Below are positions 5,557-61,070 of a stretch of DNA of 64,000 nucleotides, in pieces. Positions within the stretch are counted from its first letter, which is position 1; each line of letters begins with the position of its first letter. Source of the stretch: Squalus acanthias (Eukaryota). Under the pieces are notes generated by a model that saw only the letters and a list, made by a program, of their open reading frames with translations, did not search any database and was not told where the DNA came from. The position numbers were made by a program, and so were the translations under genes. The stretch spans positions 115,384,001-115,448,000 of the forward strand of contig CM059431.1 in the NCBI GenBank assembly GCA_030390025.1. Reading direction: 5' to 3'.

Positions 5557-5695
5557 GGAATTTGCATTAATATAGCACCTTTCATACCCACAAGATGTCC
5601 CAAAGCGCTTTAAAGCTAGATGAGGTACTTTTGAATTGTAGTTACTGTTGTTATGTACAGTTTGCACACAGCAAATACCTTAAGCAGAAATGAGA
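5557..5695 (-). mobile_element. DeuSINE 3' fragment (continues at ~8400-8438, split by a LINE)
   Basis: Matches tail of the 1702-2158 SINE; the next colinear part (AATGATCAGATAATCTGTTTTAG) reappears after the LINE. Confidence 0.65.
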
Positions 5696-5704
5696 TTTTT
5701 TTTT

Positions 5705-8398
5705 GTTTATGGGATGTGGGCATCGCCTGGCAAGGCCAGCCTTTATTACCCATCCCTAGTTGCCCTTGAGAAGGTGGTGGTGGGCTGCCTTCTTGAACCG
5801 CTGCAGTTCGTGTGGTGAAGGTACTCCTACAGTACTGTTAGGTAGGGAGTTCCAGGATTTTGACCCAGCGACGATGAAGGATCGGCGATATACTTCTAAG
5901 TCAGGATGGTGTGTGACTTGGAGGGGAACTTGGAGGTGGTCGTGTTCCCATGCACCTGATGCCCTTGTCCTTCTAGGTGGAAGAGGTCGCAGGTTTGGGA
6001 GGTGCTGCCGAAGAAGCCTTGGCAAGTTGCTGCAGTGCATCTTGTAGATGGTACACATTGCAGCCACGATACGCCGGTGGTGGAGGGAGTAAAAGTTTAA
6101 GGTGGTGGATGGGGTGCCAATCAAGCGGGCTGCTTTGTCCTGGATGGTGTCGAGCTTTTTGAGTGTTGTTGGAGCTGCACTCATCCAGGCAAGGGGAGAG
6201 TATTCCATCACACTCCTTACTTGTGCCTTGTAGATGGTGGAAAGGCTTTGGGGAGTCGGGAGGTGAGACACTCGCCCCTCAATACCTAGCCCCTGAGCTG
6301 CGCTTGTTGCCACAGTATTTATGTGGCTGATCCAGTTAAGTTTCTGGTTAATGGTGACCCCCAGGATGTTGATAGTGGGGGATTCGGCGATGGTAATGCC
6401 GTTGAATGTCAAGGGGCGGTGGTTGGACTCTCGTTTGTTGGAGATAGTCATTGCCTGGCACTTCTATGGCGCGAATGTTACCTGCCACTTATCAGCCCAA
6501 GCCTGAACATCGTCCAGGTCCTGCTGCATGCGGGCATGGACAGCCTCCTTATCTGAGGAGTTGTGAATGGCACTAAACACTGTGCAGTCATCAGCGAACA
6601 TCCCCATTTCTGACCTTATGTTGGAGGGAAGGTCATTGATGAAGCAGCTGAAGATGGTTGGGCCCAGGACACTGCCCTGAGGAACTCCTGCAGCGATGTC
6701 CTGGGGCTGTGATGATTGACCTTCAACCACCATAACCATCTTCCTTTGTGCTAGGTATGACTCCAGCCAGTGGAGCGTTTTCCCCGATTCCCATTGACTT
6801 CAGTTTTACTAGGGCTCCTTGATGCCAGACTCGGTCAAATGCTGCCTTGATGTCAAGGGCAGTCACTCTCACCTCACCTCTGGAATTCAGCTTCTTTGTC
6901 CATATTTGGACCAAGGCTGTAATGAGGTTGGGAGCCGAGTGGTCTTGGCAGAACCCAAACTGGGCATCAGTGAGCATGTTATTGTTGAGTAAGTGTCGCT
7001 TGATAGCACTGTCGATGACACTTTCCATCACTTTGCCGATGATTGACAGTAGACTGATGGGGCGGTAATTGGTCAGGTTGTATTTGTCCTGCTTTTTGTG
7101 GACAGGACATACCGATGCAGTTTTCCACATTGTCGGATAGATGCCAGTGTTGTTGCTGTACTGGAACAGCTTGGCTAGAGGCGCAGCTAGTTCTGGAGCA
7201 CAAGTCTTCAGCACGATAGCCGGGATGTTGTCAGGGCGCATTGCCTTTGCTGTATCCAGTGCGCTCAGCCATTTCTTGATATCACGTGGAGTGAATCGAA
7301 ATGGCTGAAGACTGGCTTCTGTGATGTTGGGGACCTCAGGAGGAGGCCAATATGGATCATCCACTCGGCACTTCTGGCTGAAGATGGTTGCAAACGCTTC
7401 AGCCTTGTCTTTTGAACTCACGTGCTGGGCTGCACCATCATTGAGGATGAGGATATTCATGGAGCCTCCTCCTCCTGTTAGTTGTTTAATGGTCCACCAC
7501 CATTCACGACTGGATGTGGCAGGACTGCAGAGCTTTGATCTGATCCGTTGATTGTGGGATCGCTTAGCCCTGACTATAGCATGCTGCTTCCGCTTTTTAG
7601 CATGCATGTAGTCCTGTGCTGCAGTTTCCCCAGGTTGGCACCTCATTTTTAGGTATGCCTGGTGCTGCTCCTGGCATGCTCTTCTACACTCCTCATTGAA
7701 TCATGGTTGGTCCGCTGGCTTGATGGTAATGGTAGAGTGAGGGATATGCCGGGCCATGAGGTTACAGATTGTGGTGGAATACAATTCTGCTGCTGCTGAT
7801 GGCCCACAGTGCCTCATGGATGCCCAGTTTTGAGCTGCTAGATCTGTTTTGAATCTATCCCATTTAGTATGGTTGTAGTGCCACACAACGCGATGGAGGC
7901 TGTCCTTAGGGTGAAGACAGGACTTTGTCTCCACAATGACTGTGCGGTGGTCACTGCTACCAATACTGTCATGGACAGATGCATCTGCAACAGGTAGATT
8001 GGTGATGATGAGGTCAAGTAGGTTTTTTCCTTGTGTTGTTTCTCTCACCACCTGTCGCAGGCCCAGACTGGCAGTTATGTCCTTCAGGACTCGACCAGCT
8101 CGGTCAGTAGTGTTGCTACAAAGCCACTCTTGGTGATGGACATTGAAGTCCCCCACCCAGAGTACATTCTGTGCCCTTGCTACTCTCAGTGCTTCTTCCA
8201 AGTGGTGTTCAACATGGAGGAGTACTGATTCATCAGCTGAGGGAGGGCGGTAGGTGGTAATCAGCAGGAGGTTTCCTTGCCCATGCTTGACCTGAAACCA
8301 TGAGACTTCATGGGGTCCGGAGTCAATGTTGAGGACTCCCAGGGCCACTCCTTCCCGACTGTATACCAGTGTGCCGCCACCCCTGGTGGGTCTGTCCT
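5705..8398 (-). mobile_element. CR1-group LINE family B, decayed APE-RT ORF
   Basis: WVGDFNVHH, SSDHRTV (APE); YRPISLLS, QFGF, DIKAAFDRVWH, GVPQGSVLGP, MFADD, YKAQVRSVMEY (RT); frameshifted. Confidence 0.9.
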
Positions 8399-25196: not shown

Positions 25197-27144
25197 GACT
25201 TCATTGAGTGTAGTCTTGCAGCTCCTTGCAGGCCCAGTTCACAAGCAGTGATGATCAGAGTGAGGCTGTGCAGCATGATTAAACCTCCCCTTTAAGAACT
25301 GGAAGGTGCCAGTCTGTCTGACGACTCTCTAATTGACAGTGCCAGACTTGATTAGCGCTCTGAAGGTAGCACCCCGCTCTCCGACGTTAGCGCCCTAAGA
25401 GACGTGTGTAGTGCTTGATTTAGCGCTCCACTTCCCTCCTGGGGCGCTAAAACTCAATTTTGCGGTCGCTGGCTCTAATTAGCGCCGGGTGCTAAAGTTA
25501 GCGCCCAGGCGATGTTAGTGCCCCAAAATGGTCAACACTGAATTTTTCCCCATTGGATATGATCATTTGGATAAATTCCAGTTTAGGATCAGGACTAAAT
25601 CCCTGAGTTTAACTGGGGGATAGGTTTCGGCGAGTGAGTTTCGATTTCAGTTCAAAACTAACCCGCTGCAGAATAAAATGAGGCCTGGGATATTTTAACT
25701 GCCGGACCTCATTTAAATGCCCTTGGCCGACTTCCCACGTGCTCAGGGCTGTAACACAGAAACTAACGGCTGCAAAATGCTGAAGTGGACGTTTTAAATT
25801 CAGTGGTGTGGCGTGTTTGCTCAGGTGCCTACAATCTTCATCTGCATTTTAAGCACACTGAGGTATAAATTCGTCTGGTAGCGCAATACGGGCGATAGCG
25901 AATTGGCATTGAAATCAACAGAAAAGAAAATCGGGTGGAGTGCAAAACAGGTTGCAGATTCACTATCACCCAGCCAACCCTGGATCAAAGAAAACCTTTA
26001 TCTGAATGAATCTGTGATGCAAAGATTCTTCCTATGTTCTGATAGAAATGCCATCTGTATTTCAGCCCAAGTTATCACAGTTGTTAAAGGTCCCGTGCCA
26101 CTATTCAAAGAAGAGTTATCCCATTATCCTGGCCAATCTCACCAAAGTCAGGTTAACAGCTCATGTTTTTTTTGTGGGACACTGCAGTACCCAAAATGGC
26201 TGCTGTGTTGGCCGACGTGACTAAACTTCAAATCAATTCATTGTACGTGAACTGCTTTGGAACATTTCCCAAAGATGTGATAAGATGCTTTTGAAATGTA
26301 TGTTTTTTAGTTGCAGCTTACGTTGGGGTTTCCATGGCGTCCTGTGGTTCTGGTATGGCTCAGCAGAGAAGGACATACACCTGTGTAATAAAATGCTTGA
26401 AATGCAGTCCGAAAGAGAAAGAATAGGTTACTGTTTTGGTTGAGACCCTTTATCTCATGATACAGAACAGAGAATTACATAGAATTTACAGCACAGAAAC
26501 AGGCTATTTGGCCCAACTGGTCTATGCCAGTTTTTATGCTCTACATGAACCTCCCTATCTAACCCTATCAGCAAATCCTTATAACTTATAACAGTAACAA
26601 AACAGTTATAAGTGACATAAAGATTAATTGCAGATATATTGGCGTTCACCATGAGAAAAGTTAGTAACCAGAACTGGACCAACGCTGAGATATAATAGTG
26701 ACATCAGCCCTTTGATCCTGAAACTGTGAGTCTTGGATAAATGAAATGTGGTCATACAAGCAACTGATCAAAGGCAAAGACCACACAAGGAAGGAAAATT
26801 AAAGCAATTTTAACCCAGTACGTTTCAGAAAAAATGACCAGCTGACATCAGCAAAATTTATGAAAGTAAACTAGCAACAGTTTCAGTAAAGCTTGGGGTC
26901 AACACATTGGTGACACAATTCCAAGACTGGATACATGACTGAAGCAAGGAAATAGTCAAACAATTGTGGCTTTGACTCCGCCAACCACAGGAGTCCTCCC
27001 TTTGCTTGACTCATTTTACCCCCACAACATAAAAGAGAGGGCAGGGAATAACTTTGTCAAAGTTTGTTAAATGCGCAAGACAGCAATCAATGAGCTTGAG
27101 GTGGTTGGGAAGCAGGGCTTCAAGAGCACAGCGGGAAAAAAGAA

Positions 27145-27612
27145 AGAAAGACTTGCATTTCTATAGCGCCTTTCACGACCGCCGGACGTCCCAAAGCACT
27201 TTACAGCCAATGAAGTACTTTTGAAGTGTAGTCACTGTTGTAATGTAGGAAACATGGCAGCCAATTTGCGCACAGCAAGCTCCCACAAAACTGCAATGTG
27301 ATAATGACCAGATAATCTGTTTTAGCGATGTTGATTGAGGGATAAATATTGGCCAGGACACCGGGGAGAACTCCCCTGCTCTTCTTCAAAATAGAGCCAT
27401 GGGATCTTTTACATCCACTTGAGAGGGCAGACGGGGCCTCGCTTTAACATCTCATCCAAAAGACAGCACCTCTGACAGTGCCACACTCCCTCAGTACTGC
27501 GCTGGAGTGTCAGCCTAGATTTTTTTTGGTGCTCAATTTTCTGGAGTGGGACTTGAGCCCACAACCTTCTGACTCAGAGGTGAGAGCGCTACCCACTGAG
27601 CCATAGCTGACA
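27145..27612 (-). mobile_element. DeuSINE (SacSINE1-like), full length
   Basis: Colinear with 1702-2158. Confidence 0.85.
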
Positions 27613-28160
27613 CAGCTGAAAGGAGGGTGGGAATGATGATTCGCCATTTTAAAACAAAAATGCTTGCCATAAAAACTGACAAACATCCCCAAAAAGCTGA
27701 GCATTCAAATAACAGACAACAACACAAAAACAGTCCTGAATATAGGCCTGGAGGACCAAGGTCACTACTTCATGGTGAGAGAATAAGTTGAATTCTGCTT
27801 TGTTACATAGGAGTCCAATGCCTTTGGGATCACATTTCACAATTTAGACCCTATTTCTGTGAAAGAAACAAAACTTAAAGGTCTTGCCAGTTGCCAATAA
27901 CGTGGTCAGTCTGTGAGTACAGTGGGACATAACCTGGCTGTCACTTAAGCATCAAGTACATCCAATATTTCCAACACTTGTACCGCAGAGAAAAATTGAA
28001 GTGCAGAAAAATTCCTTTGTTTACAATGTAGACCTAGAAATTTTGTGAAGAGGACAGAGCACTGAAGATTCAAGCTTTATTTCTTAGGGTCATCTAGGGG
28101 TTTGCCCTCCAGGTAATTTGGAATTTAACACTTTTTGGTCCATTTTCCAGCATTTTGGGT

Positions 28161-28635
28161 TGTCAGCCATGGCTCAGTTGGTAACACCCTCGCTTCTGAG
28201 TCAGAAGGTTGTGAGTTCAAGCCCCATTTCAGAGATTTGAGTGCAAAAATCTAGGCTGACACTCCAGTGCAGTGCTGAGGGAGTGCTGCACTGTTGGAGG
28301 GGCTGTCTTTTGGATGAGACATTAAACTGAAGCCCCGTCTGCTCTCTCAGGTAGATGTAAAGGATCCCATGCCACTGTTTCGAAGAAGAGCAGGGGAGTT
28401 ATCCTCGGTGTCCTGGCCAATATTTATCCCTCAATCAACATTATCAAAAAACAGGTTAGCTGATCATTAACACATTGCTGTTTGTGGGACCTTGCTGTGT
28501 GCAAATTGGCTGCTGCGTTTCCGACATTATAACAGTGACTACACTTCAAAAAGTACTTCATTGGCTGTAAAGCGCTTTGGGACATCAGGTGGTCGTGAAA
28601 GGTGCTATATAAATGCAAGTCTTTCTTTCTTCTTT
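28161..28635 (+). mobile_element. DeuSINE (SacSINE1-like), full length
   Basis: Head TGTCAGCCATGGCTCAGTTGG, Deu-like core, (TTTC)n tail. Confidence 0.85.
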
Positions 28636-30139
28636 CTTTTTGCAGTCTTGGAAGCTAAAAGTAACTTATTCTGGAACAGTTACAGACATTTCAATTATAA
28701 AGGAAAAAAGTTATTACAAGTCGCAATTGACTGTTGAATTTGACACCATCAGAAGGTAATGCAGAGTGAGCACAAATACAACGGAATGCTGCTAATATTA
28801 ATACAGGAATAATCTATCTCACAATGGCAGCAGCTCACGGTAACAAGACAGGGATTGAAATGATAAAGTCACTAATCTTGTAGTTCAGGGCTCACTAACT
28901 CAAAAGAACGGTCAAGTGAATGTTAATCTGTTAGTTGTCTCCAACCAAATGCCAGGCTGAGCCAACATAAGACCCACTGCGTTCCCCAACCTCCACGAAT
29001 GCGGGTAAATTTTCACCGTTTGCCCACTGCCTGGAACTTCACATATGCGCATGAGAAATATCTAGGGCATTCTGGGATAACTTTAACAAATAGTGATTTT
29101 GATCAGTAAATGCTGACTGTACGTGTGATACACTGATGATTAGTGTGTATGATTTATCATTTGAATGGAATAAGAAATAAGAATTCAGTTAAAGATGAAC
29201 TAAATTTGGACACAGCTCGCCTTAATGCTAAGCCATTTTGTAAAGCTTGGGGCCCCAATCTCTGATTGGACAATGGATGTAAGTGCGGTGGAATGCCGGT
29301 GAGGGGATCATAATATGGGACAGAAGCAGTTCCACTGGGTTTCCACCCCGTTCAATCATAAAATCCAGTGGATGGGGAGAGCGAGTGTGACTTCCACCCT
29401 TATTCCCCCACCCCACCCCTCCTGCTCTGTATCAAGGTGGCACAATTTGGGGAACTTCCCAAGTTACCCAGGGAACTCTGGCCTTTATGCCTTTGGTCGG
29501 CCTCAATGAACACTTGTTATCTGAGAGGTGGCAGGAGATCTGTGAAGGCCCCAGGAAAGGCCCCACACCTTGCACAGTAAAAATAATCAATTCCTAAAGG
29601 CTCCCTTCACAGATTAAGATTTATTTTTATTATAATTTCATCTTTGGCTCAGGAAAGGTCTCAGGGGACCTCTAGAAGAGCGGCTAAGGGCCATTCTGCC
29701 TTACAATGGTGGGATCTGGATGGGCTCCTCTGAAGTGAAAAGTGTGCATCTTGTTGGAAAGTGTGCATCTGTTGGCATTGGGTGAGGACAGGATGAGCTT
29801 AACTGTGATGCCTTCATAATGAGTAACCTACTAAATTCATACGTAGAAGATATAGGATAGTGTAGGACCAGGAAAGTCTCTGCAGTCCATATAGCGGGTC
29901 TCAAAAACTAATACTCAAGTATCTAATGAATTCTCCCTTAAATTGTTTCACACTATCTGCCTTCACTGCCTCCCTAGGTAGTCTGATCTACACATTCATT
30001 ATCCTCTGTGCAAAGTAGTTAAATCTAAAAATGCATAAGCTTGAAACAATGTTTCCTGGTTCTAGAATTTGTGGCAATTTTGAACATATTATCAGGGTTC
30101 AATTTATCTATTCCCTTAAGAATTGTGAATACTTTTTTT

Positions 30140-31640: not shown

Positions 31641-32039
31641 AGAGAACCCACCGTTATCTTCCAATAAAACAGTGTGCTTAGCAAACAGAACACTCAGAAT
31701 GGCCTCCTGCTCAGACTGTGTTAAAGGTTTTTCAGACACTAACATGAATGGCCAATACGCAGCAAAGTGTGTTACAGCCTTATACATGTATTTTCAGCCC
31801 AAAAGATTCCTGCTATCCAATATGTTGTCTGTACATGTTATCACACCCACAATGGTCTGCATACTGATACTAGGGTGTTACTACATGTCATCTGGACAAT
31901 TCAAACTTCTTATTTCTTCTAATCTGGCTGCAGGAAAAGGTAGCCATTAGCAACAGGAAGAAAAAAACAAATAACAACAGATAGAGAGCACAACATTTCA
32001 TTTTCTAACCTCTAACGACAAGAAAGCTCTGGAAATCAA

Positions 32040-32492
32040 AAAGACTTGCATTTCTATAGCGCCTTTCACGACCACCAGACTTCTCAAAGTGCTTTACAGC
32101 CAATGAAGTACTTTTGGAGTGCAGTCACTGTTGTAATGTGGGAAACACAGCAGCCAATTTGCGCACAGCAAGCTCCCACAAACAGCACTGTGATAATGAC
32201 CAGATAATCTGTTTTAGTGATGTTGGTTGAGGGATAAATATTGGCAAGGATACCAGAGATAACTCCCCTGCTCTTCTTTGAAATAGTGCCATGGGATCTT
32301 TTACGTCCACCTGAGAGAGCAGATGGGGCCTCGGTTTAACGTCTCATCCGAAAGACGGCACCTCTGACAGTGCAGCACTCCCTCAGCACTACACTGGAGT
32401 GTCAGCCTAGCTTTACGTGCTCAAGTCCCTGGAGTGGGACTTGAACCCACAACCTTCTGACTCAGAGGTGACCCACTGAGCCACAGCTGACA
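32040..32492 (-). mobile_element. DeuSINE (SacSINE1-like), full length
   Basis: Colinear with other copies. Confidence 0.85.
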
Positions 32493-33799
32493 TACAGAAC
32501 ATGGAGACTGCAGGAAATGAGGAAGTTGGAAGTTCAGGGCTTGCAATAATCTTCTGTTTTTCTTCTTTCTCATTCTAATCTCTCATTCACAAACTGACAG
32601 CAAAACATATACTGAATTCCGTTACCATGTCAATCTTCCTACTGAAAGCTATGTATGAAGACTGCTCAGAAGGACTCCTTTGTCTTCCTCTTCATTCTCC
32701 AGGTGTGCCACAGGAAACGCAGATGAGAAAATATACCCTTTATGGCCTCCTGGGATTAGTGCTCTATCCCTTTAGCCGCACATCCCAAGATCATGTTACT
32801 TTCCCTTGCTGCTATTGCATGCTGTGTTCTTGGTTTCAGTGAACTGTTCATCAATTACCCCAGATCGCCCTCATATGTTGTATCTTGTAACCTAGAACCA
32901 GTGGGGATGAATTTCCATTGGGGTTCTTCCACTCGTCTACCATAACTTCAGCCACAGAAAGTCCACGGAAATTACCCCCATTTTGTTTATATTCTTACTG
33001 TCTATATTCCTTCCCTGGTCAGGAGAAAGTGGCGATACCTGGAAATATCACCTTTTTTTTTACTAGAGTAATTCCAGTTGTTTATTTCTCTCACATACTC
33101 CTGACATAAGCACAACATACTGCAGGTAACATCAGGTTTGAATCTACCTTTATTTAGTTTCTTCCAATTGCATTGTAAGAGAAATATAGAGTGATGTCCC
33201 CTATTAAGGCCTCTATGTAGCACCTTATTTGTATTACAGATCTGTATTTCCAATCTACATTTTAGCCATTTCATGCTGTAAATGTCACAAACCATCTGCC
33301 AAATAAATTAAGAAAAACAGCCTTCTGACTAAAATGATCAAACATGCAGTAATATATCAGACCCAGAGGCTACATAAACATTTTTATATCATGACATTAA
33401 GTTATATGTCTGCATGTGATGGCAGATAGCTGTGTTGAGATTCAGAACCAGTATAAACGGGCAGTAAATTATATACCGCTCAGGCACTGCAAAGGACTAC
33501 CATTCTCAGCTCGTATGCTCGATCGTCAAAAGTGCTTTGTTGCATGTTAGGTGGCATAACAATAGAGCGCAACCTGAGACATCTGCAATAAGGACAGATG
33601 TTTCATAAGTTTGACTCTGGTGGTTTGGGAGCACATAAAAAATCGGAGAAATTGTATTAGTGCAGCAGGCATGTCAGGGGGATTTCCTGCTGTCTAATTT
33701 GTGATCTAGCAACCCTGTTTCAGTTAGCTGTGCACTTGAATTTGTGCATGCAAGGAACATAAGGCAAAGTCTTGTGACATCCCGCACCACTTTTTTTTC

Positions 33800-38486: not shown

Positions 38487-38795
38487 ATTGTCTACATTAG
38501 ACCCCCTGTGACCCCACCTCATTGTCTCAGTTGTATCTTGCTATGTCTTTGATGTGGTGCCTTCCTGGCTGACCTGAATGTTTCTCTGCCGAGGTGTGAT
38601 GAAAGACAGTCAGATAGATTAACTGTAGTCGTCTGAGATTGTACGCTACACAGGCATTGTTCTCTGACTATATATGCTTTGCCGATTCGTATTCCTTCAC
38701 TTCACCTGACGAAGGGGCAGCAGCTCCGAAAGCTTGTGATTTCAAATAAAACTGTTGGACTATAACCTGGTGTTGTGCGACTTCTCACTTTTTTC
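38487..38795 (+). mobile_element. Penelope-type terminal-repeat fragment carrying a hammerhead motif (family 1)
   Basis: TATATA box, hammerhead fold, AATAAA, then CTGTTGGACTATAACCTGGTGTTGTGCGACTTCTCA shared with 50188-50322. Confidence 0.7.
38702..38739 (+). ncRNA. Minimal hammerhead ribozyme-like motif
   Basis: TCAC-CTGACGA-A-GGGGC agca GCTCC-GAAA-GCTT-GTGA. Confidence 0.78.
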
Positions 38796-39979
38796 CCTAT
38801 GTTCTGCTTTCATTTTATGAGGCTGAGGTGAACAGAAGAACTCGGAAACCCGGACTGAACTCCCAGTTACACCAATCCGCAGAATCAATTGATCAGCTCA
38901 GCCACCATTCGAGGAACTTATATACAAGAGGATGCAGATCACTGATTGCAGGACAGACAGAGCAGCTTGTTGTTGTTACTGCACATAGATAACCTAACTC
39001 TGATCAAACTGGTCCAAAGTCCTTTCCTTCTTTCTACAAGCATAACCAGAATTTCCGCCACACTCCTGACAAAGTTACGACGGTGCAGCAGCAGGAAGTC
39101 CAAGAAAATTCAGGGCCTTTATTGTCCTTTGAAAATATTTGGCCTAGAAATGGATTGCGCCCAAATTGTGGGCGATCCCGGTGTAGCGCAGGCTGCACGG
39201 GTCTGAAGAGGCTGGTGGCAGGACCAGGGCAAATTGGTCCGCCGGCCTCATTGATTCATTGACCGGTGTTCTGTGGGCGCCAGTCGTGGCCCTAGAGGCA
39301 GCTCGCCAGTCGCGGATGGGAGCGAATTTGGCCAGCTCGGACGCCAGTCGAGGTCATTGGCGGAGTATGGGGGAGGGGCAATCAGGAGGGGGAGTGAGTG
39401 GTGGCTGATAGCGGCCCAGCGATTTAATGTGGAGCCAGGAGGAACACTGCTGCTTTGGCCGGCTCAACAATGAGGTAAGTAAAAAAGTGAAAAAACTGAC
39501 CTTTCGTGAGGCAGCCTCTAGCGATCCCTTTAAGTGTTGCTGGTTTTGGCCGCTGAAGAATCTGACTGCAGAATGCATGGCGCATATTGCGGTAAGTCGC
39601 AATCTGCAAAGGGTGTTTCAAACAGACGTTAGGCCCTCTATTTACATATGCAAAAGAGCTAATGCCTGTTTCAAGCATGCGCCCTGGATGCCTGCGGAGG
39701 AGCTCTAACCAATATGGCGGGCTTTCTGATTTCTTTCCCCTGACTGCACTCTTCCACCCTTGGAAGGTTCTTTTGACTCAAATTTAGTTGGGTATTTTTC
39801 TCCTTCCAATCTTCTGCCCTCTTTTCTTTGAGGTGTTGACTCTTGTGGGCACACTAAAAGCCTTCTGGTAACTTGTCAAAGTGGACATTCTTCATTTGTG
39901 AGCATTAGGGATAGCACAAGAACCAAGTGTGATCCTGTCTTCATGCAACATCCATATGTGCACACTTTCAAATAGTTAA

Positions 39980-44719: not shown

Positions 44720-44831
44720 TTCTTCTCTCCTCCCCAACTTAAAAAGTTACGCAAGAGCATGGTATTGGGTAAGTGGTGATTAAACTGCTGCAGGACCAAA
44801 ATGGAGGAGGTGCAGGAGGACTTGAGCCATT

Positions 44832-45290
44832 TGTCAGCTGTGGCTCAGTGGGGAGCACTCTCACCTTTGACTCAGATAGGTCGTGGGTTCAAGTCCCACT
44901 CCAGAGAATTGAGCACAAAAATCTAGGCTGACACTCCAGTGGAGTGCTGCACTGTCGGAGGTGCTACCTTTTGGATGAGATGTTAAACCGAGACCCTGTC
45001 TGCTCTCTCAGGTGGACGTAAAAGATCCCATGGCAGTATTTCGAAGAAGAGCAGGGGAGTTATCCCTGGTGTCCTGGCCAATATTTATCCCTGAATCAAC
45101 ATAACAAAAACAGATTATCTGGTCATTATCACATTGCTGTTTGTGGGACCTTGCTGTGCGCAATTGGCGGCCACATTTCCTACATTACAACAGTGACTCC
45201 ACTTCAGAAGTACTATATTGGCTGTAAAGTGTTTTGGGACATCCGGTGGTCGTGAAAGGTGCTATATAAATACAAGTCTTTCTTTTTTTC
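44832..45290 (+). mobile_element. DeuSINE (SacSINE1-like), full length
   Basis: Colinear with other copies; T-rich tail to ~45335. Confidence 0.85.
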
Positions 45291-46236
45291 TTTTCTTTCT
45301 TTTCCTTCCTTTCTGTTTTTTTTTCTTTCTTTCTATTTTTCCTCACTGCCTTTGACTTCACTCTCAACATCTTCACAGCTTACAGTGACAGTCAGGTAAG
45401 GCAGAAATCATGCCTGGTGCTTCTGATACCTGGAAAGTCATAAAAAATCTTTAAGTCTGATGCAACATGTTTGGTGGCAAGCAGGAACCAAATCATGCAT
45501 TCAGCTGGTTCCCGCCTGCTGCTATAAATGGAGCATTATACCACAGATACAGCATGAAGCCACTATTAGGTTTCCACACACCACACTACTTTACAGACCA
45601 TAAAACAGGACAGCATAAGGACACTAAACACTAACTACAAAATTATGAACTCCACCAAATCCACAAGGGAATGCAGAAGAATGTAAAACATTTCTATGGG
45701 GGTCATTTTAAAACTTAATTCGGGTTGGTGCTGTACTTGATCTTCCAACCATTTAAAGTAACGACCTTTAAAATTGTACCCTAAATTTTGATGTCAGCAT
45801 TCGTCAGGTGAAGCTCCCTGCTGGGAGTGCCAATTCAGAGAATTGCCCTTTATTTCCCACGCTCTTGGATGTTATTTAGTGTGATTTATCTTCTCCTGTT
45901 ATCAGCTCCACTTGAAAATTGAGAAGTGGTGAATTGCATCATTCTGGCAACAGTGGATTTTGGTGGGTCCTGATCTGCCAGCTCCACGTCTGCCTGGTGT
46001 CGGATGGAGAACAGTGCTGGGTGGGAGTGTAAAGGTGAGGTAATGGCCTTAGATACAGCTACTTTGATGCAATTAGAACCGCAAAGTAAAAGCTCCTGTG
46101 GCCCTAATGTTAAATGGGGTGGGAAGGGTGCACACGAGCTCTGAAGTGGGCAGCGAACCCGGAGAGTCTGGGGACCATTTTAACGGCTGGGCCTTATTAA
46201 CATAAATTTTCCCGTTGAGCTTGAAGTGTAAATGTG

Positions 46237-46575: not shown

Positions 46576-46589
46576 AAAAATTATTTTTA

Positions 46590-48112
46590 TTTGTTTATGG
46601 GATGTGGGTGTCGCGTTAAGGCCGGCATTTATTGCCCATCCCTAATTGCCCTTGAGAAGGTGGTGGTGAGCTGCCTTCTTGAACTGCTGCAGTCCGTGTG
46701 GTGAAGGTACTCCCACAGTGCTGTTAGGGAGGGAGTTCCAGGATTTTGATCCGGCGACGATGAAGGATCGGCGATATATTTCTGAGTCAGGATTACATGT
46801 GACTTGGAGGGGAACTTGGAGGTGGTGGTGTTCCCATGCGTCTGCTGCCCTTGTCCTTCTAGGTGGAAGAGGTCGCGGGTTTGGGAGGTGCTGCCGAAGA
46901 AGCCTTGGCGAGTTGCTGCAGTGCATCTTGTAGCTGGTACACACTGCAGCCACGGTGCGCTGGTGGTGGAGACAGTGAATGTTTAAGGTGGTGGATGGGG
47001 TGCCAATCAAGCAGGCAGCTTTGTCCTGGATGGTGTCGAGCTTCTTGAGTGTTGTTGGAGCTGCACTCATCCAGGCAAGTGGAGAGTATTCCATCACACT
47101 CCTTACTTGTGCCTTGTAGATGGTGGAAAGGCTTTGGGGAGTCAGGAGGTGAGACACTCGCTGCAGAATACCTAGCCTCTGACCTGCTCTTGTTGCCACT
47201 GTATTTATGTGGCTGGTCCAATTAAGTTTCTGGTCAATGGTGACCCCCAGGATGTTGATGGTGGGGGATTCGGCGATGGTAATACTGTTGAATGGTTAGA
47301 CTCTCGCTTGTTGGAGATAGTCATTGCCTGGCACTTCTGTTGCGCGAATGTTACCTGCCATGTTGTCCAGGTCTTGTTGCATGTGGGCATGGACTGCTTC
47401 ATTATCTGAGGAGTTGTGAATGGTGCTGAACACTATGCAGTCATCAGCGAACATCCCCATTTCTGACCTTATGTTGGAGGGAAGGTCATTGATGAAGCAG
47501 CTGAAGATAGTTGGGCCAAGGACACTGCCCTGAGGAACTCCTGCAGCGATGTCCTGGGGCTGTGATGATTGACGTTCAACCACCACAACCATCTTCCTTT
47601 GTGCTAGGTATGACTCCAGCTAGTGGAGCATTTTTCCCCCCGATTCCCATTGACTTCAGTTTTACTAGAGCTCCTTGATGCCACACTCGGTCAAATGCTG
47701 CCTTGTTGTCAAGGACAGTCACTCTCACCTCACCTCTGGAATTCAGCTCCTTTGTCCATATTTGGACCAAGGCTGTAACGAGGTCGGGAGCCGAGTGGTC
47801 TTGGCGGAACCCAAACTGGGCATCCGTGAGCAGGTTATTGGTGAGTAAGTGCTGCTTGATAGCACTGTCGATGACACCTTCCATCACTTTGCTGATGATT
47901 GAGAGTAGACTGATGGGGCGGTAATTGGCCGGGTTGGATTTGTCCTGCGTTTTGTGGACAGGACATACCTGGGCAGTTTTCCACATTGTCGGATAGATGC
48001 CAGTGTTGTAGCTGTAGTGGAACAGCTTGGCAAGAGGGGCAGCTCGTTCTGGAGCACAAGTCTTCAGCATGATAGCCGGGATGTTGTCGGGGCCCATAGC
48101 CTTTGCTGTATC
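46590..48112 (-). mobile_element. LINE family B, 5'-truncated RT part
   Basis: KAMGPDNIP, YRPISLLS, GVPQGSVLGP, MFADD, YKAQVRSVMEY; intact 3' tail. Confidence 0.9.
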
Positions 48113-50187
48113 TGTTGGCTCACAGACAGCTCGTTTTATTTTCATTTTTCTGAAGATTTGTCAGCTTTTGGCACTGATCGTGCAAGGAAGGAGCTGAGAT
48201 GTTCCAGGTTGCAGTGTATTTACATTTCCAGCACTTTTATGAAGTTACTGCTCCCCATCCCCACTCCTCTCTACAACTCTGGGCCAAGGTGGTTTAACCA
48301 GCTAAAAATCATCACAATGTTGTTTTTAAAAAAGTTTTACCGTTAGGGCAAAATCTGGGACGGATAATTCTGAGGAAGAGGGGCAATTCTGTCGTTGTGC
48401 AGTAACTCTGTGGTGAATTTTATGGCCACAAAATTGCGGAAAAGTAGTAGGAGCATTGGTTATAATATGTGATTTAGTCACTTATGTGTTACTGGCAGGA
48501 TTTACATGCTGTGTAACGGTCATCGCAGGCTGGAATACCTGTGGTATTCTTCTCTACAGGGTAGATTTAATGAATTAGTGCTCCTAATACAAAGTTGAAC
48601 ATGATGCTCAGCACCAGAAATGATCAGCACCAGAATCTATCCCTTCTAGTGTATTCCCCAATAGTTTCTTATTTTAACGCCCTGTTCCCCTTAGCCTGTC
48701 CTTTGGTTGAGGGCCTGTTCCCCAAACCAGTGTTGCATGTTTCATTTGCCCAGTCTCATTGGCCTTGATATTAACCCTCCCACGTCAGGCGGGAGAGGGT
48801 CGGGGAGGGGGTTAAAAATGTAAAAAAAACGGGAAACATAAGAACATACATAAGAACATAAGAAATAGGAGCAGGAGTTGGCCATTTGGCCCCTTGAGCC
48901 TGCTCCGCCATTCAATGAGATCATGGCTGATCTTCTACCTCAACTCCATCTTCCCGCACTATCTCCATGCCCGATTTTCCCAGCCCTGAGGAGGCGGGTT
49001 TGGAGGCGGGACAGTTGGTATAATTGCAAAAATTGAGTGTGGGTTCGGAACCCGCCTCCAACCCGCCTCCGCATAACTTTGCCGGAGGCGGGCTTCAGGA
49101 GTGCGATTCGGTCCCGCCTCCAAGAGGCGGGATAGGCAGTTAAGACCCTTAACAAGCGCTTAAGGGCCTCAATAATCCTATTTTGACAGGCCTTTGATAT
49201 TTTGCCACATTTACAGCGTGTTGTACGCCGCTCCTATACCACGCCGGCTAATCCTGGCGGGTTGACAAGTGGCTGGCCTCCTCACAGCTGCAGCTCCACC
49301 ATAAAAACGGAGCTTTCAACAGGGATGAGTTGGAGGTGGCAGAACTTTTGTTGCACAGGTCTTTGAGCAGTTTTTCCAGGCCTACTGAAGTCAGAGGTGG
49401 TGCAGCTGAGATCTATCTACTTTGGAACCTCCTGGGAAAACCCTCTCCCCACTTGGACTGAGCGCTTCCCCAACGGAGGTATCTACCAGCAGCATGGGAA
49501 ACATTTATTTCCTTTCATCGTGGCCCTCAGATTCGGATGAAGAGCAGCCGCGGCAGCAGCAGAACCAGGCAGAACAGCAGCAACAGCAGCAGGAGTGCCA
49601 ACCTGCTGCTCACCCACCTGATGGTGCACAGGGCAGAAGGCGCCAGCGCATGGCAGCACGTCGCTGCAGGTGATACCCCCCTCTCAGGGTTTACCGACAG
49701 AGGATGAGCTTTCTCAACATGAGTGAGCAGCAGTGCCAAAGGAGGTTTGTTGGAGACATCTGCGCACTGCTGCACCAACACCTGGAGCCCAGAGGATCCG
49801 GTGGACACCCCTTACCAGTGGCTGTCAAAGTCACCACCGCACTCAACATTTTTGCTTCAGGCTCCTTCCAGGGATCATCAGCAGACATGTGAAGAGGCTT
49901 CAAGGGGATCTCGACAGGCTCAGTGAGTGGGCAAGAACATGGCAGATGGAATATAATGTGGATAAATGTGAAGTTATCCACTTTGGTCGAAAAAACAGAA
50001 AGGCAGAGTATTTCCTAAATGGTGAAAGATTGGGGAATGCAGATGCTCAAAGGGACCTAGGTGTCCTTGTACATGAGTCACTGAAAGTGAATGTGCAGGT
50101 GTAGCAAGTCATTAGGAAGGCAAATGGTATGCTGGCCTTCATTACAAGAGGATTTGAGTACAGGAGTAAAGAAGTCTTACTCCAATT

Positions 50188-50322
50188 GCTAACTTACCTG
50201 ACGAAGGAGCGATAGCTCCGAAAGCTTGTAAAATTAAATAAATCTGTTGGACTATAACCTGGTGTTGTGCGACTTCTCATTTTTGTCCACCCCAGTCCAA
50301 CGCCGGCATCTCCACATCATGA
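50188..50322 (+). mobile_element. 135-bp Penelope-type hammerhead-bearing insertion
   Basis: Interrupts the CR1 sequence; CCAATT duplicated at 50182-50187 and 50323-50328; homologous to 38700-38795. Confidence 0.85.
50194..50231 (+). ncRNA. Minimal hammerhead ribozyme-like motif
   Basis: TTAC-CTGACGA-A-GGAGC gata GCTCC-GAAA-GCTT-GTAA; perfect stems I and II. Confidence 0.8.
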
Positions 50323-52011
50323 CCAATTATATAGGGCCTTGGTGAGACCACACCTGGAGTACTGTGTACAATTTTGGTCTCCTTACCTAAGGAAGGATAT
50401 ACTTGCCATAGAGGGAGTGCAACGAAGGTTCACGAGATTGATTCCTGGGATGGCGGGACTGTCGTATGAGAAGAGATTGAGTAAACTAGGCCTGTGATCT
50501 CTTGAATTCAGAAGAATGAGCGGGCATCTCATTGAAGCATACAAAATTATTACAGGGCTTGATAGGGTGGATGCTGGGAGAATGTTTCCCTTGGCTGGGG
50601 AGTCTAGAACCAGGTGCCACAGCCTCAGAATAAAGGGTAGGCCATTCAGGTCTGAGATGAGAAGAAACTTCTTCACACAGAGGGTGGTGAATCTTTGGAA
50701 TTCTCTACCCCAGAGGGCTGTGGAGGCTCAGTCATTGGGTATATTCAAAACAGAAGTCAATAGATTTCTGACTAGTAAGGGCATCAAGGGATATGGCGAT
50801 AGGGCCGGTGAATGGAGTTGAGGCAGAAGATCAGCCATGATCTTATTGAATGGCGGAGCAGGCTCGAAGGGCCGAATGGCCTACTCCTGCTCCTATTTCT
50901 TATGTTCTTATGTTCTTATATACATCAGCGGCATCTCCCAGTTGGCCGCCCACAGTTGCATCACACAGTTTACTGATGCCCTCTTTGCAAAGGCGCACAA
51001 TTACATCAACTTTTCAACTGATCAAGCAAGTATAACCGCGCGTGCGGTTGAATTCGCAAATTTGGCAGGCTTGCCAATGGTGCAGGACGTCATAGATTGC
51101 ACAAATATGGCCCTGAGGGCGCCCCATCACAACCCAGCTATTTTTGTCAACCGCAAGGGCTTCCACTCCCTCAATGTACAGCTGGTGTGTAACCACAAGA
51201 AGGAGATTTTGCATATTTGCACCAAGTACTGTGGCAGTTGCCATGGCTCATTCATCCTGCGGCAGTCTAGTGTGCCTCCGCTCTTCAAGCCGTCAAACCA
51301 ACTTAACAGATGGCTACTTGGAGACAAGGGCTGCCCCCTGAAGACATGGCTAATGACGCCGATCAGGAGGCCAGCGAACAAAGGTGAGGAGCGCTACAAC
51401 GCCAGCCACATTTCGACCAGGTCCATCTGCGAACAAACCACCGGCTTGCTGAAGATGCGATTCAGATGCCTTGACCGATCAGGTGGAGCCCTGCAGTACT
51501 CAGCAGCCAGGGTCACCAGAATGGTCGTGGTCTGCTGTGCACTGCACAACATGGCACAGCATCGTGGCTTGCAGCTTCCTGATGAGCAAGTGGCGCAGTA
51601 CATAGCCTCCTCAGATGAAGAGGAGGAAGAGGAGGAAGAGAATGATGACCGAGCGAAGGCGCATCAACCAGCAGCAGCAGCACACGAGCACATTGCTGGC
51701 CGGAATGCAAGGGATGCACTCATCTTGGCCAGATTTGCTTAGGCTGCCCATTCTAGCACATGTGCTTGGCTCCTTCTTAGCACAACATAGACAATGGACA
51801 TGACTCTCTGGCTTCCTCTCACTCTGACCACCAACCTGACCAAGCAAGTCTCGCTGAGGCCGCAATGTGGAACTTCCAAAACCAAAATCACAGAGGCCAT
51901 AACGTCAACAGTTTGCCATCACCAGAGTTTAATACATTCACAAAGGGATGGCATTTAATTATTAAATACAAAAAAAACACCCAAGTGACTGCCCGTGTGA
52001 CTAATTGTGCT

Positions 52012-56759: not shown

Positions 56760-58125
56760 GCTCCAGTACAGCAACACTGGCATCTACCCGACAATGTGGA
56801 AAACTGCCCAGGTATGTCCTGTCCACAAAAAGCAGGACAAATCCAATCTGGCCAATTACTGCTCCATCAGTCTACTCTCAATCATTAGCAAAGTGATGGA
56901 AGGTGTCCTCGACAGTGCTATCAAGCAGCAGTTACTCACCAATAACCAGCTTACTGATGCCCAGTTTGGGTTCTGCCAGGACCACTTGGCTCCAGACCTC
57001 ATTACAGCTTTGGTCCAAACATGGACAAAAGAGTTGAATTCCAGAGGTGAGGGGAGAATGACTGCCCTTGACATCAAGGCAGCATTTGACTGAGTGTGGC
57101 ATCAAAGAGCCCTAGTAATACTGAAGTCAATGGGAATCGGGCGGAAAACTCTCCAGTGGCTGAAGTCATACCTAGCACAAAGGAAGATGGTTGTGGTGGT
57201 TGGAGGTCAATCATCACAGCCCATTGTCCTAGGCCCAACCATCTTCAGCTGCTTCATCAATGAACTTCCCTCCATCATAAGGTCAGAAGTGGAGATGTTC
57301 GCTGATGACTGCACGGTGTTCAGTGCCATTCACAACTCCTCATATAATGAAGCAGTCCATGCCCGTATGCAGCAAGACCTGGACGACATTCAGGGTTGGG
57401 CTGATAAGTGGTAGGTAACATTCGCGCCACACCATTGCCAGGCAATGACTATCTCCAAAAAGCGAGCGTCTAACCACCACCCCTTGACATTCAACAGCAT
57501 TACCATCGCCGAATCTCCCACCATCAATATCCTGGGGGGGTCACCATTGACCAGAAATTTAACTGGACCAGCCACATAAATAATGTGGCAACAAGAGCAG
57601 GTCAGAGGCTGGGTATTCTGCAGTGAGTGTCTCACTTCCTGACTCCCCAAAGCCTTTCCACCATCTACAAGGCACAAGTCAGGAGTGTGATGGAATACTC
57701 TCCACTTGCCTGGATGAGTGCAGCTCCAACAACACTCAAGAAGCTCGACACCATCCAGGACAAAGCAGCCCGCTTGATTGGCACCCCATCCACCACCTTA
57801 AACATTCACTCCCTCCACCACCAGCGTACCGTGGCTGCAGTGTGTACCATCTACAAGATGCTCTGCAGCAACTCGCCAAGCATCTTCGGCAGCACCTCCC
57901 AAACCCACGACCTCTTCCACCTAGAAGGACAAGGGCAGCAGGCGCATGGGAACACCACCACCTCTAAGTTCCCCTCCAAGTCATACACCATCCTAACTTG
58001 GAAGTATATCGCTGATCCTTCATCGTCGCTGGGTCAAAATCCTGGAACTCCCTCCCTAACAGCACTGTGGGAGCACCTTCACCACACGGACTGCAGCGGT
58101 TCAAGAAGGCGGCTCACCACCACCT
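56760..58125 (+). mobile_element. LINE family B RT fragment (left arm of inverted pair)
   Basis: QFGF, DIKAAFD, MFADD, YKAQVRSVMEY; no 3' tail. Confidence 0.9.
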
Positions 58126-61070
58126 GCTGTTAGGTAGGGAGCTCCAGGATTTTGACCCAGCGACGATGAAGGATCGGCGCTATACTTCTAAGTCAGGATG
58201 GCGTGTGACTTGGAGGGAAACTTGGAGGTGGTGGTGTTCCTATGCGCCTGCTGCCCTTGTCCTTCCAGGTGGAAGAGGTCGCAGATTTTGGAGGTGCTGC
58301 CAAAGAAGCCTTGGCGAGTTGCTGCAGAGCATCTTGTAGATGGTACACACTGCAGCCACGGTACACCGGTGGTGGATGGGGTGCCAATCAAGCGGGCTGC
58401 TTTATCCTGGATGGTGTCGAGCTTCTTGAGTGTTGATGGAGCTGCACTCATCCGGGCAAGTGGAGAGTATTCCATCATGCTCCTTACTTGTGCCTTGTAG
58501 ATGGTGGAAAGGCTTTGGGGAATCAGGAGGTGAGACACTCGCCACAGAATACCTAGCCTCTGACCTGCTCTTGTTGCCACATTATTTATGTGGCTGGTCC
58601 AGTTAAATTTCTGGTCAATGGTGACCCCCAGGATGTTGATGGTGGGGGATCCGGCAATGGTAATGCCGTTGAATGTCAAGGGGAGGTGGTAGACTCTTGC
58701 TTGTTGGCGATAGTCATTGCCTGGCACTTCTGTGGCACGAATGTTACCTGCCACTTATCAGCCCAAGCCTGAACGTTGTCCAGGTCTTGTTGCAAGCGGG
58801 CATGGACTGCTTCATTATCTGAGGAGTTGTGAATGGTGCTGAACACTGTGCAGTCATCAGCGAACATCCCAATTTCTGACCTTATGTTGGAGGGAAGGTC
58901 ATTGATGAAGCAGCTGAAGATGGTTGGGCCAAGGACACAGTCCTGAGGAACTCCTGCAGCGATGTTCTGGGGCTGTGATGATTGACCTTCAACCACCACA
59001 ACCATCTTCCTTTGTGCTAGGTATGACTCCAGCCAGTGAAGCATTTTCAACCTGATTCCCATTGACTTCAGTTTTACTCGGGCTCCTTCATGCCACACTC
59101 GGTCAAATGCTCCCTTGCTGTCAAGGGCAGTCACTCTCACCTCACCTCTGGAATTCAGCTCCTTTGTCCATGTTTGGACCAAGGCTGTAATGAGGTCGGG
59201 AGCCAAATGGTCTTGGCGGAACCCAAACTGGGCCTCAGTGAGCAGGTTTTTGGTGAGTAAGTGCCGCTTGATAGCACTGTCGATGACACCTTCCATCACT
59301 TTGCTGATGATTGAGAGTAGACTGATGGGGCGGTGATTGGCTGGGTTGGATTTGTCCTGCTTTTTGTGGGCAGGACATACCTGGGCAGTTTTCCACATTG
59401 TCGGATAGATGCCAGTTCTGTAGCTGTACTGGAACAGCTTGGCTGGAGGTGTGGCTAGATCTGGAGCACAAGTCTTCAGCACGATAGCTGGGATGTTGTT
59501 GGGGCCCATAGCCTTTGTTGTATCCAGTACGCTCAGCCGTATCTTGATATCACGTGGAGTGAATCGAATTGCCTGAAGACTGGCTTCTGTGATGGTGGGG
59601 TCCTCAGGAGTAGGCCGATATGGATCATTCACTTGGCACTTCTGGCTGAAGATGGTTGCAAACGCTTCAGCCTTGTCTTTTGCACTCACGTGCTGGGCTC
59701 CACCATCATTGAGGTTGGGGATATTCATGGAACCTCCTCCACCTGTTAGTTGTTTAATGGTCCACCACCATTCACGACTGGATGTGGCAGGACTGCAGTG
59801 CTTAAATCTGATCTGTTGATTTTGGGATCGCTTAGCCCTGTCTATAGTATGCTGCTTCCACTTTTTAGCATGCATGTAGTCCTGTGCTGCAGCTTCCCCA
59901 GGTTGGCATCTCATTTTTAGGTACGCCTGGTGCTGCTCCTGGCATGCTCTTCTACACTCCTTATTGAACCAGGGTTGGTCCCCTGGCTTGATGGTAATGG
60001 TAGAGTGAGGAATATGCCAGGCCATGAGGTTACAGATTGTGGTGGAATTCAATTCTGCTGCTGCTGATGGCCTACAGCGCCTCATGGATGCCCAGTTTTG
60101 AGCTGCTAGATCTGTTCTGAATCTAGCCCATTTAGCACAGTGGTAGTGCCACATAACTAGATGGAGGGTGTCCTCAGTGTGAAGATGGGACTTCGTCTCC
60201 ACAATGACTGTGCGGTGGTCACTGCTACCAATACTGTCATGGACAGATGCATCTGCGACAGGTAGATTGGTGAGGACGAGGTCAATTAGGTTTTTCCCTC
60301 GTGTTGGTTCTCTTACCACTTGCCGCAGGCCCAGACTGGCAGTTATGTCCTTCAGGACTCGGCCAGCTCGGTCAGTAGTGGTGCTACTGAGCCACTCTTG
60401 GTGATGGACATTGAAGTCCCCCATCCAGAGTACATTCTGTGCCCTTGCAACTCTCAGTGTTTCTTCCAAGTGGTGTTCAACATGGAGGAGTACTGATTCA
60501 TCAGCCCGAAGGAGGGCGGTAGGTGGTAATCAGCAGGAGGTTTCCTTGCCCATGCTTGACCTGAAGCCATGAGACTTCATTGGGTCCGGAGTCAATGTTG
60601 AGGACTCCCAGGGCCACTCCTTCCCAACTGTATACCACTGTGCCGCCACCTCTGGTGGGTCTGTCCTGCCGGTGGGACAGGACATACCCAGGGATGGTGA
60701 TGGAGGAGTCTGGGACGTTGGCTGAAAGGTATGATTCTGTGAGTATGACTATATCAGGCTGTTGCTTGACTAGTTTGTGGGACAGCTCTCCAGATTTTGG
60801 CACAAGTCCCCAGATGTTGGTGAGGAGGACTTTGCAGTGTCGACTGGGCTGGATGTGCCGTTGCCGTGTCCGTAGCAGGTGCCGAGGTCGATGCCGGGTG
60901 GTCCGTCCGGTTTCATTCTTATTATGTTTCGTAGCGGTTAGTTACAACTGAGTGACTTGCTAGGCCATTTCAGAGGGCAGTTAAGAGTCAACCACATTGC
61001 TGTGGGTCTGGAGTCACATGTAGGCCAGACCAGGTAAGGACGACAGATTTCCTTCCCGATAGGACATTAG
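58126..61070 (-). mobile_element. LINE family B, near full length with 5' region and 597-aa ORF remnant, 3' tail missing
   Basis: LLTNIWGL, IVILTESYL, DRPTRGGG, YRPP, GDFNVHH, SSDH, RT motifs to MFADD. Confidence 0.92.

Follow-up and report, generated by a model that had tools for sequence, protein, structure and literature searches.

A probable run-off copy of a Penelope-like element end with a minimal hammerhead motif in the genome of Squalus acanthias

Penelope-like elements (PLEs) of the endonuclease-bearing (EN+) group possess one open reading frame (ORF) for a reverse transcriptase (RT) with a C-terminal GIY-YIG domain, and pseudo-long terminal repeats (pLTRs) in which a hammerhead motif can be found (PMC8557442). 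Their integration, their inverted ends and the in vivo role of their hammerheads are questions still posed in PMC11167929 and PMC8557442. Hammerhead counts of about 4,000 for the coelacanth and about 9,000 for Xenopus were obtained with another descriptor (PMC4209133), and no shark family appears in the covered parts of that paper's main text. The locus described here lies in a stretch of 64,000 nucleotides (the window) of contig CM059431.1 of Squalus acanthias (assembly GCA_030390025.1, forward-strand positions 115,384,001 to 115,448,000). A 135-bp insert with a hammerhead motif interrupts a fragment of a long interspersed nuclear element (LINE), which we take to be of CR1 type. The insert is a solo copy of the last 135–140 bp of the pLTR of a young, intact PLE, probably made by run-off reverse transcription, an account that we hold with good confidence. 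The kind of element and the kind of hammerhead are known already; the locus is a dead solo end.

The insert and its parent element

All window features given here are on the plus strand. The hexamer CCAATT occurs at 50182–50187 and again at 50323–50328, with 135 unique bp in between, which gives a 6-bp target-site duplication. Two uninterrupted CR1-type copies in the window can be aligned across the site without the insert, and the decayed LINE reading frame picks up again at the duplicated codon 3′ of it; the earlier note on this DNA was therefore right to call this a true insertion with a target-site duplication. The 5′ side of the host fragment (49888–50187) aligns to other copies in the window and translates as a decayed C-terminal region of LINE ORF2, and the 3′ side (50323–50919) terminates in a short microsatellite. 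The stretch that matches the element is 140 bp long (50185–50324): the last three nucleotides of the left duplication are also the element's predicted positions +1 to +3, a microhomology that begins with the A of an initiator-like (Inr-like) motif as the first base of the copy, and the first two nucleotides of the right duplication match the ORF start too. A small number of AT-rich positions within CR1-type repeats have been hit repeatedly by independent insertions elsewhere (in the flanks of many fetched loci, for example L002, L014, L016, L051, L089, L090 and L101), which suggests a target preference.

The 140 bp match positions 3082–3221 of locus L031 at 100%, beginning at the predicted start of transcription and ending shortly beyond the start codon of the ORF. 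All 135 bp are matched at 100% by each of the 40 own-genome candidates that were scored, out of 694 and with the window copy among them, and 26 of 30 fetched loci run on upstream into the same element. The stand-alone short unit proposed earlier is thus not upheld. L031 (G000:C8) is an intact element bounded by two matches 3,019 bp apart; identical 247-bp direct repeats flank an ORF of 892 amino acids (aa), the ATG of which is the last ATG of the 135-bp unit, and the locus also carries an inverted partner. A linked ORF for RT and GIY-YIG, which the note had suggested looking for, exists.

The 892-aa protein contains an RVT_1 domain (Pfam, E = 2.2e-8, above the cut-off) with YIDD and DKG motifs. 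A CX4CxxC linker at residue 753 agrees with the CX2-5CxxC linker by which Neptune and Nematis elements are recognised. A GIY-YIG-like motif with two cysteines lies at residues 790–807 and is followed by histidines at 820 and 836 (CCHH). The Pfam search gave no GIY-YIG match on the query itself; the protein aligns through its C-terminus, at 39% identity, to a relative bearing PF01541. The closest named relatives are shark proteins (85–91%), in keeping with the Penelope origin in a shark that had been suggested. The single RT ORF, the C-terminal GIY-YIG with CCHH, the pLTRs, the inverted 5′-truncated partner and the one-sided tail are all features by which EN+ PLEs are defined. By the definitions of PMC8557442, the parent is classed as an EN+ PLE of the Neptune/Nematis type, with the clade placement read from motifs.

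The family is large. A 25-mer of the pLTR has 21,516 exact matches in the genome (control, 0), and the minimal-hammerhead pattern has 82,350 (control, 721). A second long element of another subfamily, L179 (G000:C1:2359200-2367300), has an ATG-initiated open frame of 848 aa between two same-strand pLTRs. A few arms continue beyond the ATG for at least 105 nt of the ORF; these include L179 and L086:2000 on the minus strand, L086 being the 5′ pLTR of a long element.

Ends of the copies and the origin of the insert

To describe how copies end, 239 pLTR arms were mapped in the first 0–110 Mb of contig C1, at loci that were not picked for likeness to the window copy (first-listed matches to the 25-mer and to the hammerhead pattern, together with bystanders). 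Their 3′ ends are bimodal relative to the ATG: 117 of the 239 end at −43 to −24, another 117 at −9 to +11 and five elsewhere. The two preferred ends are separated by a ‘tail’ of 30–40 bp, which corresponds to 50282–50322 in the window, with the ORF start codon (50319) at its end. Each of the 61 abutting inverted pairs found is made up of one tailed and one tail-less arm; the pair finder is blind to pairs with an arm of over about 300 nt, so that short–long pairs are undercounted (at least L145, L179 and L186, by eye). The 5′ ends cluster just upstream of the hammerhead, with 71 of 239 arms ending at −17 to −1 relative to C3 as against four at −34 to −18, or 38 against two of 178 when each abutting pair is counted once. 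The ends in this pile-up lie at a median of 31 nt downstream of a TATA-like box, and long copies of all subfamilies have this box and an Inr-like motif in the region of the pile-up. A TATA box and the same Inr-like motif have been described in a rotifer pLTR (PMC3846280). Among the short copies, the junctions at both ends differ.

The identity of the insert with the pLTR of an intact element, the two classes of 3′ end, the 5′ pile-up and the target duplication are thus direct observations. From them we infer that the pile-up marks the transcription start, at which the RT would run off the capped 5′ end of an uncut RNA. In the window, the element's RT, primed at a nick in the CR1 fragment, would have started internally at the ORF start codon and run off the 5′ end of an uncleaved transcript, leaving a short copy; the template would have been uncut, because the copy runs through the predicted cut site. 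Target-primed internal initiation is proposed here by analogy with the PAc element of the green anole, for which it was shown in vitro, and the bimodal 3′ ends, together with the 61 of 61 tailed and tail-less pairs, match the two internal RT start sites and the extension on both strands demonstrated in that system (PMC11167929). The commoner outcome of this reaction would be the priming of both cut strands, giving two arms in head-to-head orientation of which just one has the tail. The 135-bp unit lacks the TATA-like box and the ORF start (it ends at the ATG at 50319), so this solo copy would be inert, a dead-end product.

Two other sources for the pile-up were tried and rejected: a splice acceptor, in view of the missing AG and the lack of a common upstream exon, and the cut site as the main 5′ end, where only four of 149 3′-anchored arms end at 0 to +3 of the cut. 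An extra G derived from a cap is not consistently present in 16 junctions. Strong homology between target and template past the ATG is not supported, the match rates dropping to 0.19–0.49. Where RNA is concerned, the sequence is found only in contigs from presumed RNA runs, and none of those listed has a poly(A) loose end; they cover the element, but starts, cuts and circles cannot be read from them.

The earlier note had envisaged a retrozyme-like family that inserts as very short units; on such a reading the family would be independent and non-autonomous, and a circular RNA formed by self-cleavage would serve its replication. Short copies are indeed very abundant, with 8,738 short head-to-head hammerhead pairs in the genome (control, 1), and animal retrozymes are traced back to pLTRs in a 2026 preprint, which also reports retrozymes in one cartilaginous fish (10.64898/2026.07.22.740005). 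The unit here, however, is 100% identical to an autonomous pLTR; it extends from the predicted start site to the ATG and not from cut site to cut site, and its junctions vary from copy to copy. The tandem copies that the note had suggested looking for do not appear: same-strand neighbours within 1 kb number 0 of 99 in a sample, inspected by eye, of the first 100 hammerhead matches rather than of the whole genome, and the fetched loci contain three neighbours on the same strand less than 400 bp apart, none of which is a tandem unit as read. In retrozymes, the type I motif is of the canonical form and the units are repeated in tandem (PMC7229834), whereas the motif of this family is minimal and does not have the helix III and the loop 1–loop 2 contacts of the canonical form. 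A retrozyme-like origin is largely refuted, and we regard it as very improbable.

Ordinary random 5′ truncation, with a pile-up produced by microhomology, local palindromes or the behaviour of the RT at the hammerhead and not by an RNA 5′ end, is unlikely. More than half of the arms (126 of 239) extend past −34 relative to C3 and end at scattered points; some junction positions are set by local palindromes, with overlaps of 4–6 nt; and where subfamilies differ in Inr-to-core spacing, the shift expected of the pile-up does not reach significance (p 0.06 in one analysis and 0.19–0.23 in another). The last two points also weigh against the run-off account, as do several others. The pile-up is 17 nt wide; the start is assigned from DNA copies and not from RNA; a TATA-less internal promoter has been reported for D. 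virilis Penelope (PMC2377424); the arms of one insertion, in a sample from part of one contig, are not independent; and the clade of the parent is assigned by motifs. The duplication at the window insert is likewise short for the family, at 6 bp against a mode of 12, with 12–14 bp in 46 of 61 inverted insertions (as scored, microhomology included). Against random truncation stand the sharp upstream edge of the pile-up (71 versus 4) and the lack of overlap, or the presence of inserted bases, in 14 of the 23 pairs of which both ends fall within it. A structural stall would, moreover, be expected 3′ of the fold, where the RT arrives first. Run-off from an uncut transcript remains the reading that we prefer.

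The hammerhead motif, its cleavage and the mismatched arms

The motif in the insert (50194–50231) is a minimal type I hammerhead with predicted cleavage 3′ of 50227, as the earlier note had it. Stem I is formed by 50194–50197 and 50228–50231 (4 bp); the core at 50198–50204 is followed by the extra A at 50205; stem II pairs 50206–50210 with 50215–50219 (5 bp), GAAA occupies 50220–50223 and H17 is at 50227. The AATAAA placed after the fold is found at 50237–50242, each position being conserved in at least 104 of 106 arms, and is the putative polyadenylation signal of the 3′ pLTR. The insert had been called essentially a hammerhead; the motif is there, but it takes up 38 of the 135 nt. The conserved core, the extra base 9/10.1, the G10.1–C11.1 pair and the palindromic 15.2–16.2 are those of the minimal type I motifs of PLEs. 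Helix III consists of a single pair and a 2-nt palindrome, and helix I has 3–4 bp. The palindrome AAGCUU pointed out earlier is present, but its 6-nt form is lost where H17 is C (47 of 106 arms), and the 4-nt palindrome at 15.1–16.1 is the relevant one. An Rfam scan of the window found no match to a hammerhead family, which is uninformative, as minimal motifs lie outside the models.

The second copy in the window (38494–38796) is a 303-bp, 5′-truncated and tail-less pLTR fragment of a sister subfamily, with a TATA-like box, an Inr-like motif and a hammerhead at 38702–38739. It is about 98.5% identical to many sister-subfamily copies, and 88% identical to the 135-bp unit over 98 bp. The hammerhead given for it in the note is real, but it belongs to this fragment and not to a short unit. 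Its helices differ from those of the insert as described (TTAC/GTAA versus TCAC/GTGA in stem I, A–U to G–U in stem II, another loop). These differences, cited as covariation in support of a selected ribozyme structure, amount to one change between subfamilies and not to independent covariation; the selection itself finds support in the core.

Core conservation was scored on 106 arms picked by a 3′ anchor; alignment artefacts affect columns 50192–50195 and the loop columns. N7 is C, A, G or T in 60, 22, 21 and 3 arms, and H17 is T or C in 59 and 47; at every other core position, at least 101 of the 106 arms match. This core conservation, with only N7 and H17 varying widely, is better evidence of selection than covariation. 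Since the sequence 3′ of the fold is well conserved too, conservation by itself is not specific to the hammerhead. Pairing was scored on 20 closely related haplotypes, each present in at least two loci, and is kept in 96% of cells. One stem I pair is altered on both sides with a U–G intermediate, the variation at two stem II pairs consists of wobbles, and eight of the 20 haplotypes have lost the outer pair of stem I; the helix changes are one compensatory event among relatives, not strong covariation. U4 (window 50199) is C in five of the 106 arms, on different subfamily backgrounds (L058, L060, L107, L119 and L127), with at most one change at other core positions; this may be a reverse-transcription error hot spot or a modified base.

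The predicted energy of the active double hammerhead is −20.7 kcal/mol, compared with −25.4 kcal/mol for the inactive swapped dimer, the best one. The lower predicted stability of the active fold agrees with PMC4209133 and PMC11167929, in which activity is weak or assisted by protein. Within the account that we favour, and with the confidence given to it as a whole, the hammerhead would be the known minimal motif of Penelope, kept by selection on master elements, and cleavage is predicted for it only in a dimer or with the help of protein.

With four of 149 3′-anchored arms ending at 0 to +3, cut RNA is not the main template. A class of very short inverted places (1,202 in the genome; control, 0) is suggestive of rare use of cleaved RNA. 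Among the first 50 of them, 22 have an arm ending at −2 to +1 of the cut, where a simulated uniform null gives 19% (p about 5e-5), the 4-nt window having been set after the list was viewed; two loci look duplicated and several are mis-scored through indels. Of junctions with at most 1 nt of overlap, 14 of 30 fall in the cut window (p 4e-4). A stricter local null leaves a modest excess (18 of 42, p 0.017; 27 of 68, p 0.013). One inverted insertion, L093 / L234 (G000:C1:6321411-6321476), has one arm that begins at position 0 and one at +1 relative to the predicted cut, with five unrelated bases between them.

The two arms of an inverted insertion do not always agree. In 50 short inverted pairs from the fetched loci, scored at N7 and stem–loop II, 25 have the same states on both arms, four differ at CpG only, four show a private variant and 17 combine two different haplotypes, each recurring elsewhere; 16 of these 17 lie within a single duplication of at least 9 bp. 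A stricter count over a longer haplotype leaves seven mismatched pairs of 39. Fold-back self-priming (PMC3846280) would yield identical arms, so arms of different subfamilies are hard to square with that model. Tentatively, and at less than even confidence, we propose that the integration complex carries two RNAs, one primed on each cut strand and held through their hammerheads in the manner of a retroviral dimer signal. About a third of the short inverted insertions would then stem from two masters, cassettes would shuffle between subfamilies, and starts at the cut site would record double-hammerhead cleavage in vivo.

Alternatively, both mismatched arms may derive from one RNA, one hammerhead having later been replaced by ectopic gene conversion at the fragile centre of the palindrome or changed by recurrent loop mutation; this is a possible explanation, short of a likely one. 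Wherever both arms of a mismatched pair are listed (19 pairs), the two agree at the five diagnostic sites 3′ of the cut; the commonest stem–loop is involved in 16 of 17 scored mismatched pairs, and pairing is far from random. These three results speak against a simple two-RNA model; the first two also favour later conversion, as do the correlated arm lengths and the occurrence of the commonest loop on two backgrounds only in short pairs (8 versus 0; Fisher p 0.005, post hoc). On the other hand, the mismatched pairs show no sign of greater age, with 0.29 private differences per pair against 0.60 (p 0.09); L105 and L114 carry the same two haplotypes with the tail and tail-less positions exchanged; and several pairs differ at two to four linked sites, with each haplotype recurring elsewhere. 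Sister masters, a template switch at the hammerhead and later conversion all remain as sources of the mismatch, the first two of which need a second RNA. Identical stem–loop II haplotypes, long loops included, are seen on several different 3′ backgrounds, which suggests the exchange of hammerhead cassettes between subfamilies.

Other repeats of the window include a self-inverted stretch of 2.7 kb (56762–59433, 87% identity), the family of which has several copies of 1.4–2.6 kb within the window and is also found at 5695–8398, 46583–48112 and 58127–60667. A dispersed repeat of about 470 bp has five copies at 83–88% identity (1699–2161, 27133–27612, 28160–28639, 32014–32494 and 44829–45307).

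Comparison with known systems

As a locus, the insert is ordinary, one among tens of thousands of dead Penelope fragments, and its value lies in the clues that the family gives to Penelope integration. With about 8,700 short inverted insertions, which come from many subfamilies with marker differences, and with intact masters besides, the genome makes the start site, the number of templates and cleavage readable from DNA. No paper on run-off solo pLTRs, two-template Penelope insertions or shark PLE hammerheads was found in a literature coverage without most subscription journals and supplements.

Non-LTR retrozymes (PMC7229834; 10.64898/2026.07.22.740005) resemble the insert in being short, non-coding and pLTR-related, with a type I hammerhead. 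In contrast to them, the shark copies show no tandem units in the sample, a minimal instead of a canonical motif and identity to an autonomous element.

The PLE minimal hammerheads described by Cervera and De la Pena (2014, PMC4209133) share the full core, the extra base 9/10.1, G10.1–C11.1, the palindromic 15.2–16.2 and a short helix I, and they too are mostly single dispersed copies ascribed to truncated PLEs, with high variability within a genome. Helix II has 5 bp in the shark family, compared with 7–8 bp in Schistosoma.

The PAc Poseidon element of the green anole (Frangieh et al. 2024, PMC11167929) agrees in the two internal RT start sites that bound a tail, the extension of both target strands, uncleaved RNA as the main template and AT-rich targets. 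The start sites of the shark family are at the ATG and 34–43 nt upstream of it, whereas those of PAc are inside the ORF; the shark hammerhead lies wholly in the 5′ leader, whereas the ORF of PAc overlaps it. For PAc, no reads ending at the cut site were found, in contrast to the modest excess among shark DNA copies.

The EN+ PLEs of the Neptune/Nematis type (PMC8557442) match in many features. A single ORF for RT with GIY-YIG at its C-terminus, a zinc-finger-like linker, pLTRs, 5′ truncation, the inverted 5′ partner, the one-sided tail of 30–40 bp and the hammerhead in the pLTR are all held in common. Unlike those elements as described in the covered text, the shark family has about 82,000 motif matches and a dominant class of short copies that end at the predicted start site.

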